Shown here: piece by piece, positions 3,108-4,569 of the stretch
How positions within the stretch are numbered: the first letter of the stretch is position 1
How the letters are laid out: each line of letters begins with the position of its first letter
IMG/VR virus record: IMGVR_UViG_2740892229_000014
Source of the DNA: a virus
Taxonomy: Duplodnaviria; Heunggongvirae; Uroviricota; Caudoviricetes
Strand: one strand, 5' to 3'
DNA: 4,615 bases
Notes under the pieces: model-generated
Told to the model about the DNA's origin: nothing
The model's database searches: none
What the model saw: the letters and a program-made list of their open reading frames with translations, nothing else
Translations under genes and position numbers: made by a program

Positions 3108-3331
3108 NNNNNNNNNNATTACCGCTTGACGCCGTGCCCTTCACATCATGGGTGATGGACGCAGGGGAGACATCCGCCACCGCCGCTTTTTTCGGATCAA
3201 CAAAGTCTGTGTCCAGACGTGCCACCACCGCCTCTGCCAGCGCATTACGGACCAGTGCATCAGCAGCCGGGCTGGAAAAACGGATCAGCTCTTCCGTCAG
3301 TACCGCAATGGCCGACACCTTCGCATGACTG
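2894..3331. repeat. Imperfect direct repeat flanking an N gap: 2894..3107 vs 3118..3331 (214 bp, about 11 mismatches, ~95% identity)
   Basis: Aligned by eye; both copies encode SAIAVLTEELIRFSSPAADALVRNALAEAVVARLDTDFVDPKKAAVADVSPASITHDVKGTAS with a single T/S difference. Confidence 0.85.
3108..3117. other. Assembly gap (10 N)
   Basis: Run of exactly 10 n characters. Confidence 0.97.
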
Positions 3332-4569
3332 AAGGTAATGGATTCAAAATCAAACTTCGTCAGCGGTCTGGCCTTGCCCTCACCCACCCAGCCTGCAGCT
3401 CCGCCGGACACCTGGGCATGCACACGGATATTGAACGGAACCTGACGAAGGGCCGGGATCCCCCCCTGACCAAATCGCCCGATAATGGTCTGCGGACGCA
3501 GGTAATCAATAAAGTCCTGCGCATATTCCTGGTATTCAGACAGGCTGCCTGCCCACTGTGGATCTGTGGTGGTCCCCGCCCCCACCGCCGATTTCAGAAC
3601 ATGATGCAGACGGCTGTCATCCGGATACTGACGGCGGGCCACTTCCAGGGCTTCGGAGCGGACACCTTTAGCCGCGGCCAGCGATTTGGCAAAACGTGCG
3701 AAACCAATCCCCTTATCCAGTTTCTGCTCCACACGGATCACCGGCGCAGAGGCCACCGTCACCACGTCACCGTTACCAGCCTGTTTCACCGGCTGTGCCG
3801 TGGCGGCCTTACCGGCTTCCAGTTCACGCAGGCGCTTCAGGTGAGCATCCACCTGACGGATTTCCGCCGCGGTGTTGTCGTAGTGCTCCTCCTCCTCCAC
3901 ATCCAGCGTGCGGCCTTCCTCTGCGGCTTTGTTCATGATCTCCTCAAGGGAGGCTGCCAGCGCCGCACGCTTGTTTTCAAAACTTTTAATCTGTTCACCA
4001 ATATTCATTGCTGACTTTTCCTTATGAAAAAGGGTTTTTGACTGTGCCGAAGCGCCGGCAGAAGATGCTGTTTTCACCACCGGTTTCCGGTTGCCGGACG
4101 CGGCAGAAAACGGTCGGTCGAAAGATTTAATGGTCTGGATGGTGCATTCCGCATTCGCAGGAACGGTGACGGCAGATACCTCCATCAGCTCCCAGCGCAG
4201 AAAATGCATTCCGCCCCCGTCCAGAAAGGTGTATTCATGGGCCCGGAAGCCCACAGAAAGCCCCCTGACCAGCCCGGTCTTAATGGCTGCCCATGCCTCA
4301 TCCAGTCGGGCTGCCAGTTGCGACGGCATATCCGGTACGGGCTTCACCAGCGTTGCCGTGATTTCCAGCCCTTCCCTGCCCCGACGCACCGTACACTGGC
4401 CTACCGGGCGGGAATGGTCATGCTGCCAGAGAAACGGGATCGCACTGCCGAACTCCGCCCCCTCCGGCTCCAGGATGTCACCATCCCGATCCGGAGAAGG
4501 CGTTGACGCAATCCCGGTGATCACCCGTTCATCCTCACTGAAGGATTTCACCGTCAGCGTAAGCGTCAA
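3118..4569 (-). CDS. Prohead protease (HK97 gp4-like, Peptidase S78/U35 type) fused in frame to a scaffold(delta)-domain + major capsid protein; 5-prime segment (484 codons) up to the gap
   Basis: N-terminal ~150 aa carry the protease blocks ITGIAS...DRDGDILEPEGAEF...PFLWQHDHSRPVG...GLSVGF...MEVSAVTVPANAE. A low-complexity linker follows, then MNIGEQIKSFENKRAALAASLEEIMNKAAEEG... (coiled-coil delta-like domain) and the capsid body. No stop codon between the domains. First codon in the track is TTG at 4569..4567; there is no in-frame ATG upstream. Confidence 0.85.
4006..4023 (-). promoter_or_regulatory. Internal ribosome-binding site plus in-frame ATG (4008..4006) that would start the scaffold-capsid protein without the protease domain
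   Basis: Minus strand reads ttttcatAAGGAaaagtcagcaATGaatattggtgaacag; AAGGA at 4023..4019, 10-nt spacer, ATG in the same frame as the protease ORF (codon 188). Confidence 0.5.

Follow-up and report, generated by a model that had tools for sequence, protein, structure and literature searches.

The window, a stretch of 4,615 nucleotides from a viral record (IMG/VR IMGVR_UViG_2740892229_000014), contains on its minus strand a single open reading frame that encodes an HK97-type prohead protease domain followed, with no intervening stop codon, by a delta-domain/HK97-fold capsid protein. By its sequence, the locus belongs to a lambdoid (Stx-phage-type) E. coli prophage, in which it is the fusion gene for head-maturation protease and major capsid protein. 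Matches of the window to E. coli prophages reach 100%, the head module is ordered HNH, terS, terL, protease-capsid, small ORF and portal, and the annotated coding sequence in the reference genome covers the entire gene (640 aa). [quoted passage not shown] Stx-phage-type records list the gene as 'major head protein/prohead protease', and routine annotation gives it just one name, 'major capsid protein' or 'prohead protease'. We found the fused gene at near full length in 1,248 of 5,426 complete E. coli genomes, i.e. about a quarter; the fusion also occurs in numerous sequenced phages and in roughly 150 distinct sequences from other taxa. The initial annotation, made from the letters alone, had described one continuous reading frame from protease to capsid, and this is borne out: a Peptidase_S78 domain leads into a Phage_capsid domain with no stop, and the single reading frame is conserved in thousands of genomes. 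It had also mentioned that such domain fusions exist; indeed, the protease-capsid fusion itself is already known from Stx phages, phage PAJU2 and actinophage fusions.

The protease domain (Peptidase_S78, PF04586) occupies positions 4129..4558 and scores 37.9 bits in the window and 34.7 bits in an intact homologue against a cut-off of 21; the stricter equivalog model TIGR01543 gives 46.5 bits, under its cut-off of 59. His55 (motif LWQHD, codon CAT at 4422..4420) and Ser110 (motif GLSxGF, codon TCT at 4257..4255), the putative catalytic pair, do not vary in alignments that extend to 33% identity. Next comes a variable A-rich linker (4009..4128) that differs in residues and length among relatives and appears to consist of the C-terminal tail of the protease and a former intergenic region. 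The capsid part begins with an N-terminal helical, delta- or scaffolding-like domain (3799..4005), which is predicted from a structural model, from the alignment with a solved head protein and from TIGR01554 (major_cap_HK97), whose match starts at residue 204 with 79 bits (cut-off 27.5). The HK97-fold body (Phage_capsid, PF05065) reaches 54.5 bits against a cut-off of 24.2, and its first part lies at 3118..3429. PHROG 617 (626 positions) spans residues 1-639 of the fusion protein. A profile search of the PDB matched the major capsid proteins 9d9w (4e-12), 9gyi (7.5e-8) and 8gta (3.7e-6); such a profile was needed, as the single sequence gave one marginal match only. In the alignment with the solved 385-aa major head protein, residue 3 of the latter falls a few residues past an internal methionine of the fusion protein, and its N-terminal helical region aligns with the putative delta region. 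The AF2 model of a 645-aa homologue was built from an 18-sequence alignment and is poor overall (mean pLDDT 45.5), so that only its protease domain, linker and first helices were considered. It predicts a beta-rich protease domain at residues 4-141 (pLDDT about 65-83), a linker with a pLDDT of 23-37, and two long helices directly after the internal methionine (residues 195-222 and 229-262, pLDDT about 68-72).

Neither limit of the reading frame as first delimited (3118-4569) is a natural end of the gene. Positions 4559..4615 belong to an IS66-family element (ISEc23), of which they form the right end, and match E. coli 2013C-4991 at 100%. In that strain, a tnpA/tnpB/ISEc23 transposase insertion lies between terL and the fusion gene, and all other genomes match the window from position 4558 onward only. 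An 8-bp target-site duplication, GCTGACGG, is present at 4551..4558; the octamer flanks both ends of the element in locus L001, which has the window sequence, and Stx2a_1447 carries the region without the interruption. The TTG at 4569..4567, taken as the start by ORF callers and PGAP, is part of the insertion sequence and almost devoid of a Shine-Dalgarno (SD) match (ΔG -3.0 kcal/mol). The native start, GGAGG-N5-GTG (MTLKRACSLL...), is displaced by about 2.5 kb, and codons 1-9 together with the native ribosome-binding site lie past the insertion. At the other limit, position 3118 is the edge of a scaffold gap of 10 N (3108-3117), which cuts the capsid body and whose flanks are a 213-nt overlap of about 95% identity (3331..3119 versus 3107..2895). 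The rest of the capsid gene follows at 2423..3107, covering positions 75-279 of 280 of the Phage_capsid profile and ending with a TGA at 2425..2423.

The IS-bearing prophage of strain 2013C-4991 contains exact copies of the pieces 4615-3118, 1407-1014 and 162-1 but not of 3107-1418 and 1003-173, which indicates that the scaffold mixes paralogous prophage copies. 'Tandem repeats' called by TRF at 1144-1684 and 2895-3332 were dismissed as duplicated contig overlaps around the N gaps and not as biology. The window copy is defective: the IS66-family insertion parts the gene from its native start, and the internal initiation region alone is intact. The upstream start named for the window is IS-derived, and this copy is probably unable to make the fusion protein normally. 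The practical consequence of what follows is smaller for the window itself, whose copy is an IS-disrupted and probably dead prophage gene.

The internal methionine is encoded by an ATG at 4008..4006, in frame with 4569 (561 nt, 187 codons), homologous to the start of free-standing capsid genes and with a predicted product of 453 aa (48.4 kDa). It is preceded by an SD-like AAGGA (4023..4019) at a 10-nt spacing, exactly as the initial annotation had described. Calling this start 'strong' was an overstatement, because the SD energy of -6.2 kcal/mol ranks fifth of the 31 in-frame ATG, GTG and TTG codons of the window reading frame. In reference copies, an equal or better SD match occurs at 15-17% of all positions of the reading frame and at 2-3 of the 10-11 other in-frame ATGs. 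Within the window alone, the internal AAGGA is therefore not beyond chance, and its significance derives from relatives only. The moderate strength of the E. coli site, its long spacer, and the fact that several non-conserved in-frame starts of the same reading frame are equal or better count as points against its use.

In the window sequence, the 60 nucleotides around the internal ATG have a GC content of 0.28 compared to a mean of 0.60 for the reading frame, which places them among the lowest 0.5% of windows; for the region from -30 to +30 around the internal start, the median rank among windows of the reading frame is 0.8% for structure and 0.4% for GC, both at the lowest end. Low GC content and weak structure could also stem from a flexible linker rich in Lys and Asn or from a leftover intergenic region. 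In E. coli, GC at synonymous sites drops strongly after the internal ATG (0.25 versus 0.65); this drop was set aside as evidence, since it is not consistent across relatives (mean 0.47 versus 0.60).

Compared with the internal site, the native upstream start has the stronger SD sequence (GGAGG, -9 to -12 versus about -5.6 kcal/mol), and its start codon is ATG in most relatives, with GTG only in E. coli. A systematically weak upstream start, which would favour few copies of the fusion, was thereby ruled out. The ratio suggested initially, with a few fusion copies per prohead and abundant free capsid protein, accordingly has no basis in the sequence, and the fusion may be a major product.

Conservation of the internal start was assessed among fused relatives, for which we used an IMG/VR scan with distant members leading the alignment to reach beyond close relatives. 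All 153 distinct fused sequences have a start codon at this position (144 ATG, 8 GTG, 1 TTG), and 141 of them combine it with an SD of -4.3 kcal/mol or stronger. Both elements were found in 26/26 fused genome or phage loci that range from 32 to 100% identity. Across the 715 columns of the alignment of these loci, only the internal-start column and the true N terminus score in this way. An alignment of 150 fused sequences gave the same picture, with 142 start codons at the internal column, 134 of them with an SD, and 86 at the next best internal column. The latter is an SD-like start column in the DDGGVAVDM region, a protein motif picked by eye, which reaches 21/26 and 86/150.

The distance between the SD core and the homologous start codon is 6-10 nt in examples counted by hand. 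The linker residues vary (KEKSA, KGNNT, KGKN, QEVNK, QEGND, RKESR), and the SD sequence falls in different codon phases (AAG GAA, AAA GGA, GAG GTA, CAG GAG GGC). When the 30 upstream nucleotides were shuffled, an SD was recovered at a median frequency of 0.03. That the SD nucleotides are kept while the residues and the codon phase vary points to a constraint at the level of nucleotides rather than of protein. One of the homologues is the 'prohead protease fused capsid protein' ORF003 of Pseudomonas phage PAJU2 (UniProt P85500, 'capsid polyprotein'), which is 48% identical over its full length, and shares both its domain order and its neighbours (terL, fusion gene, small ORFs, portal). PAJU2 also has an internal CAGGAGGGCAACGAC-ATG site, with an SD energy of -10.8 kcal/mol; a literature search found no report of this start.

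Protease and capsid are separate genes in relatives from Snodgrassella, Acidovorax, Moraxella, Burkholderia, Ralstonia and Stenotrophomonas. The capsid start codon of these unfused relatives aligns exactly with the ATG at 4008, which agrees with the initial placement of this ATG at the start of the capsid part. Burkholderia phage vB_SBP9 and a Ralstonia phage have TAA GGA NNN NNN ATG/TTG at the junction, in frame, so that the protease stop lies inside the SD sequence; TAA GGA differs by a single nucleotide from the AAA GGA seen in fused genes. We counted at least 11 changes between the fused and the unfused state on a neighbour-joining tree, in which tree and direction of changes are rough. 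A clade of about 130 mostly fused tips includes four unfused ones, in which the protease and capsid parts are separated solely by in-frame stops, a single one in L127, L161 and L268 and two in L156. Such nesting is explained most simply if the internal site works in the fused ancestors. The initial annotation had proposed to search homologues for a stop codon in the linker and regarded its presence as evidence for two ordinary genes. A stop does occur there in some distant relatives, yet it favours the dual-start reading rather than refuting it. Programmed readthrough of the stop codon in 'unfused' relatives was discarded, as 11/33 junctions are in frame, which equals the chance expectation of one third.

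Based on these comparisons, we consider it likely that the capsid protein is also made alone from the internal start, i.e. that the gene is expressed in two forms. The internal site corresponds to the start of unfused capsid genes, is kept in fused relatives and lies in the least structured, lowest-GC part of the reading frame, which argues that it is still used. With respect to origin, two adjacent genes would have been fused when the protease stop codon, located inside the capsid ribosome-binding site or immediately before it, was lost. The capsid initiation region, AAGGA-N10-ATG in an unstructured A-rich context, would since have been held under selection inside the fused reading frame. Translation from the upstream start would yield a protease-linker-delta-capsid protein of roughly 69 kDa, and the internal start, in frame, a delta-capsid protein of roughly 48 kDa. 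By analogy to HK97 and to nested protease-scaffold genes, both products may co-assemble via their common capsid part, the covalent tether would carry the protease into the prohead, and the protease would then cut off itself and the delta domain. A literature search gave no description of an internal start or of a second product for any protease-capsid fusion, nor any proteomic or ribosome-profiling data on two products.

A different model has been put forward for the homologous PAJU2 protein, namely a single polyprotein for which autocatalytic cleavage is proposed, as given in PMC8306868, which cites Uchiyama 2009. Applied to the whole family, every capsid subunit would be made as a full protease-delta-capsid chain that cleaves itself after assembly, and the internal ATG with its SD would be a non-functional leftover of the fusion. 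The stronger upstream SD and the unexceptional internal SD of the window fit this model, and when genes fuse because a stop is lost, the old start stays behind by default. A leftover should decay, yet the start codon persists without exception and the SD in all but 12 of the 153 sequences at 32-100% identity, although the linker around the site diverged in sequence, length and codon phase; moreover, a functional capsid start is required in the unfused lineages that lie within fused clades. We therefore regard production of the polyprotein alone as rather unlikely, though it is the foremost of the alternatives. Frequent recombination or repeated recent fusion could also keep the site in place without selection.

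It is considerably less probable that the purine-rich motif and the A-rich stretch have a role in the protein itself or in its folding, be it as a flexible linker of Lys, Gly and Asn, as a site of protease cleavage or as an SD-like pause for the ribosome, and that the methionine is retained because it begins the delta helix. The linker is indeed predicted to be disordered, K-G is common four to five residues ahead of the methionine in Enterobacterales, and the conserved DDGGVAVDM motif shows that a protein motif elsewhere can also yield a fairly conserved SD-like start column. Against this, the encoded residues are not conserved (KG, KE, EV, EG, KES) but the nucleotides AGGA/GAGG are, unfused relatives use the same motif and codon as their actual ribosome-binding site and start, and ATG is replaced by the start codons GTG and TTG and not by other codons for Val, Leu or Ile. 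That an assembly or sequencing error merely erased the stop between two ordinary genes might be suspected from the gapped scaffold with its mixed prophage copies and from the stop present there in some distant relatives. However, no gap interrupts 4615-3118, which is identical to a complete genome over its whole length, and the fused reading frame recurs throughout the E. coli genomes, phages and other taxa counted above, so that we give an artefact practically no credence.

Dual expression leads to a broader proposal, towards which we lean only slightly: 'fused' and 'separate' may be interchangeable states of one expression unit, with at least 11 switches through the gain or loss of one stop codon beside the capsid ribosome-binding site. 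The kept internal start would set the share of capsid subunits with a tethered protease, and this would be a third route for the protease into the prohead, in addition to the targeting tail of HK97 and the scaffold domain shared in lambda and herpesviruses. To our knowledge, the control of protease dose in fusion-type phages has not been worked out so far. If the internal start is used, the ratio of protease to capsid would be set by two initiation sites, and the current annotation misses the main structural product. The family would in that case also show nested genes arising in one step from adjacent genes, and reverting.

Lambda, HSV-1, Mu-like phages and HFTV1 have protease-scaffold genes for which an in-frame internal start is established (bioRxiv 10.64898/2026.09.13.751334; PMC4378225). 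As in the gene described here, the protease is N-terminal in lambda C/Nu3, Mu and Mu-like I/Z, HSV-1 UL26/UL26.5 and HFTV1 gp17/gp17.5. In lambda, Mu, HSV-1 and HFTV1, the in-frame internal site gives rise to large amounts of a C-terminal product that lacks the protease and assembles together with the full-length protein. The C-terminal part shared by both products is a separate scaffolding protein in these systems, whereas here it comprises the delta domain and the whole capsid protein; furthermore, the two products have been demonstrated experimentally there and are deduced here. General searches showed no sequence relationship to the nested genes of lambda, Mu, HSV-1 or HFTV1. The fusion gene would thus work in the manner of lambda C/Nu3-type nesting without membership in that gene family.

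HK97 gp4 and gp5 likewise pair an S78-type protease with an HK97-fold capsid protein whose N-terminal helical delta domain replaces a separate scaffold. In HK97, protease and capsid are encoded by two genes, and the protease enters the prohead non-covalently. The gene order differs as well, with the protease-capsid gene located ahead of the portal gene here. The NF045541 fusion type also unites protease, scaffold and capsid in one gene and is only distant kin of the gene described here, which scores 54 bits against a cut-off of 525.

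The head gene of the window is a fusion of a protease and a capsid domain. The reading frame that opens at position 4569 on the minus strand matches Peptidase_S78 (37.9 bits, cut-off 21) and continues without a stop codon into Phage_capsid, as the initial annotation had described. The boundaries proposed there for the gene, 4569 and 3118, need to be revised. At position 3118 the sequence reaches an assembly gap, and the next sequence piece carries the gene on to a TGA at 2425..2423; the gene encodes 640 amino acids in the reference annotation and 645 in intact copies. The TTG at 4569, which PGAP uses as well, has a negligible SD (-3.0 kcal/mol) and is IS sequence, since the right end of the IS66-family element ISEc23 occupies 4615..4559 (minus strand; junction ...CGCTTAC followed by GCTGACGG) and the native start found in uninterrupted genomes is another one, the gene beginning there with CAGGAGGCTGAT-GTG ACT CTT AAA CGG GCC TGT TCC CTG CTG ACG GTG... 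The element (tnpA, tnpB, ISEc23 transposase) sits 26 nt inside the head gene (window 4551-4615; 3611-6027 in L001, the IS-bearing prophage locus of E. coli 2013C-4991). The octamer GCTGACGG is present at both IS ends as an 8-bp target duplication, and the native start and nine codons are displaced by about 2.5 kb. By coincidence, the IS end supplies a TTG-started MTLTLTVKS... in place of the native MTLKRACSLLTVKS..., which explains the apparently intact 640-aa protein of PGAP. Because the IS cut off the native start, and with the portal gene of the same prophage also annotated as frameshifted, the window's own copy is probably non-functional.

In the 645-aa numbering, the protease domain spans residues ~4-141 (AlphaFold) and is followed by a variable, predicted-disordered linker (residues 142-192, AlphaFold), Met193, long AlphaFold-predicted helices from residue 195, and Phage_capsid (residues 386-635, Pfam). 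With a mean pLDDT of 45.5, the AlphaFold model is of poor overall quality, and its use was limited to the protease, the linker, and Met193 with the first helices. In the alignments, the motif residues His55 (LWQHD) and Ser110 (GLSxGF) are unchanged down to 33% identity. The alignment with a solved major head protein of 385 aa begins at residue 3 of that protein, a few residues past Met193, which places Met193, as judged by alignment, at the position where free-standing capsid proteins of this type begin.

The gene is widespread. E. coli chromosomes match the 1.5-kb piece at 100% identity, many Stx1a-, Stx2a-, and Stx2c-converting phages match it at ~94% nucleotide identity, and 1,248 of 5,426 complete E. 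coli genomes contain a near-full-length match. The intact homologue is at least 95% identical at the protein level to those of BP-4795, 1717, and YYZ-2008, where it is annotated as “major head protein/prohead protease”, “phage prohead protease” or “major capsid protein”. Fused homologues occur across the Enterobacterales (644-648 aa, both Pfam domains, 73-77% identity) and, more distantly, in Proteus, Reyranella, Candidimonas, a Rhizobium phage, and Pseudomonas phage PAJU2 (48% identical). The fusion itself is already known, as the initial annotation had stated for fusions of this type: the PAJU2 record reads “prohead protease fused capsid protein”, unrelated actinophages have genes annotated as “major capsid and protease fusion”, and NCBIfam and PHROGs both include categories for protease-capsid fusions. 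By sequence, the window gene is one of the PAJU2-type fusions. Its mode of action would resemble that of the lambda C/Nu3 class, to which it does not belong: here the capsid protein itself would be the nested product, whereas in lambda this is a separate scaffold.

The in-frame ATG at 4008..4006 and the AAGGA at 4023..4019, with a 10-nt spacer, are present as claimed. Calling this start strong, however, overstates it: the SD is moderate (-6.2 kcal/mol), ranking fifth among the 31 in-frame ATG/GTG/TTG codons of the window ORF, and 15-17% of ORF positions in the reference copies have an equal or better anti-SD match. By itself, the window offers no statistical ground for picking out ATG 4008.

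We compared 28 loci from species-representative genomes, eight phage records, and ~240 viral contigs, which left 153 fused and 34 unfused sequences after removal of identical junctions; an SD was scored at -4.3 kcal/mol or stronger. In unfused relatives, which include Snodgrassella, Acidovorax, Moraxella phage Mcat6, Burkholderia phages, a Ralstonia phage, and Stenotrophomonas phage SOVA965, the capsid start codon is exactly homologous to ATG 4008. Two ordinary genes separated by a stop codon, the arrangement that the initial annotation had set against a single frame, are what these relatives possess, and this speaks for the reading of the internal start, not against it. In Burkholderia phage vB_SBP9 (TAC TAA GGA TTA CGT ATG) and the Ralstonia phage (ACA TAA GGA CAC GCA TTG), both with an in-frame junction, the capsid SD includes the protease stop codon. 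Since fused genes have AAA GGA ... ATG at the place of this TAA GGA, one T-to-A change makes the fusion, and the Lys of the common Lys-Gly is plausibly a former stop codon.

At the internal-start column, a start codon with an SD is found in each of the 26 fused genome and phage loci, whose pairwise identity is 32-100%; among 715 alignment columns, the true N-terminus alone is comparable (22/23). In an alignment of 150 sequences, 142 have a start codon in this column, 134 with an SD as well, and the next internal column, with 86, appears to fall in a conserved Gly-rich protein motif. Every distinct fused sequence has a start codon here (153/153; 144 ATG, 8 GTG, 1 TTG; up to four codons of alignment slack), and 141 have an SD. 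Members from Pseudomonas, Reyranella, and Rhizobium carry a strong, AGGAGG-type SD (-8 to -12), within the top 0-0.4% of their own ORF positions. The sequences themselves show the domain architecture and that the internal site is present, conserved, and homologous to real start sites. The -30..+30 region ranks among the least structured (median 0.8%) and lowest-GC (median 0.4%) windows per ORF; in the window sequence, its GC is 0.28 versus 0.60 and its MFE -9.5 versus a median of -18.1 kcal/mol. The low GC could be a by-product of the Lys/Asn-rich linker or of an intergenic origin. A downstream drop in synonymous GC was not general among the relatives tested.

A neighbor-joining tree of 182 capsid sequences, which is a distance tree only, requires at least 11 changes between the fused and unfused states. 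One clade of ~130 tips is fused throughout except for four single unfused tips, which have in-frame stops (one in L127, L161, and L268, two in L156) 0-75 nt upstream of the capsid ATG. To our knowledge, neither a conserved internal initiation site nor repeated toggling between fused and separate genes by one stop codon has been described in such genes. Readthrough in the unfused versions with in-frame stops was considered and rejected, as in-frame junctions (11/33) match the chance expectation exactly.

We consider it probable that one mRNA carries two translation sites, the upstream one yielding a 69.4-kDa protease-linker-delta-capsid protein and the internal one a 48.4-kDa delta-capsid protein. 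Both products would enter the growing prohead through their common capsid part, so that the protease would be brought in by a covalent tether and would afterwards remove itself and the delta domain. For the use of the internal site, co-assembly, and self-removal, we infer from HK97 biology and from the nested protease-scaffold genes of lambda, HSV-1, HFTV1, and Mu-like phages. In the literature, we found no experiment demonstrating the two products in any member of the family. The proposed stoichiometry of few fusion and many capsid copies finds no support in the sequence: the upstream start has a GGAGG SD (-9 to -12 kcal/mol), stronger than the internal one, and is ATG in most relatives and GTG only in E. 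coli. Alternatively, only a polyprotein might be made and the internal site be vestigial, which we regard as unlikely; a later paper (PMC8306868) cites the PAJU2 UniProt entry as “capsid polyprotein” with proposed autocatalytic cleavage. If the four unfused tips are reversions, the internal start must have worked in their fused ancestors.

A role of the motif in the protein or in pausing seems improbable. The residues before the Met differ (KEKSA, KGNNT, KGKN, QGKT, QEVNK, KEND, QEGND, RKESR), the linker contains indels, and the purine core lies in varying codon phase (AAG GAA, AAA GGA, GAG GTA, CAG GAG GGC). When the 30-nt upstream segments were shuffled, an equally good SD recurred at a median frequency of 0.03, and together the comparisons point to constraint on the internal SD at the nucleotide level. 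The site could also look conserved through fusions that recurred recently or through recombination, and an artefact has a barely appreciable chance. A phage-assembly specialist would find two-site translation sensible rather than startling; it is directly testable and would alter the annotation of a very common gene.

In intact relatives, a GC-rich hairpin with a T-run behind it (CCGCTGCGGCGGTTTTTTTATTTTCAGGAGG) lies between terL and the head gene (~5935-5974 in L002, an intact relative's locus); the window lacks it because of the IS. The T-run ends ~4 nt upstream of the SD, and T-run and GGAGG are conserved across Enterobacterales loci. The element resembles an intrinsic terminator or a structured RNA adjoining the upstream ribosome-binding site and could influence the amount of fusion protein made.

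The window is a scaffold in which 10-N gaps at 163-172, 1004-1013, 1408-1417, and 3108-3117 separate five sequence pieces. Neighboring pieces overlap by 213 nt at gap 3108-3117 (3331..3119 versus 3107..2895, minus strand) and by ~277 nt at gap 1408-1417 (by TRF), with ~91-95% identity; the TRF “tandem repeats” (e.g. 1144-1684) are these overlaps flanking N gaps. The genome of E. coli 2013C-4991 matches the protease-capsid gene in 11 places. As pieces 4615-3118, 1407-1014, and 162-1 are exact in one of its prophages and 3107-1418 and 1003-173 are not, the scaffold mixes paralogous prophage copies.

The minus strand of the window covers a phage head module in part, running from the protease-capsid gene through a 73-aa ORF and the portal gene to a repeat-containing gene. 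Intact relatives have HNH endonuclease, terS, terL, protease-capsid, small ORF, portal, and then head-tail connector and tail genes. The 73-aa ORF (2157-2378, minus strand) is conserved, belongs to PHROG 829 of unknown function, and overlaps the portal start by ~55 nt; among the phage records examined, those of PAJU2 and of Burkholderia, Moraxella, and Salmonella phages likewise have small ORFs at this position. The repeat-containing gene (1-478, minus strand; L002 9485-10708) starts at ATG 478, overlapping the portal stop (ATGA), and encodes ~56-aa repeats (DDVRPM.EQMVK.A.SHIPVPRDGRDYDPDVLQ.AVNDAV..IPVPA...), the probable reason why the assembly broke at 163-172. The portal and this ORF are both covered by PHROG 2271 (859 positions, “portal protein”); PGAP annotates the pair as one “frameshifted” portal and record AP012536 as two separate CDS, so that the head module may contain a second polymorphism of the fused/separate kind. 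In an Arsenophonus endosymbiont of an insect (L021, 2480-4401), the protease-capsid homologue is a pseudogene in at least five frames and pieces, in which the junction AAAAAGGAAAGTCAG-ATG is still kept.
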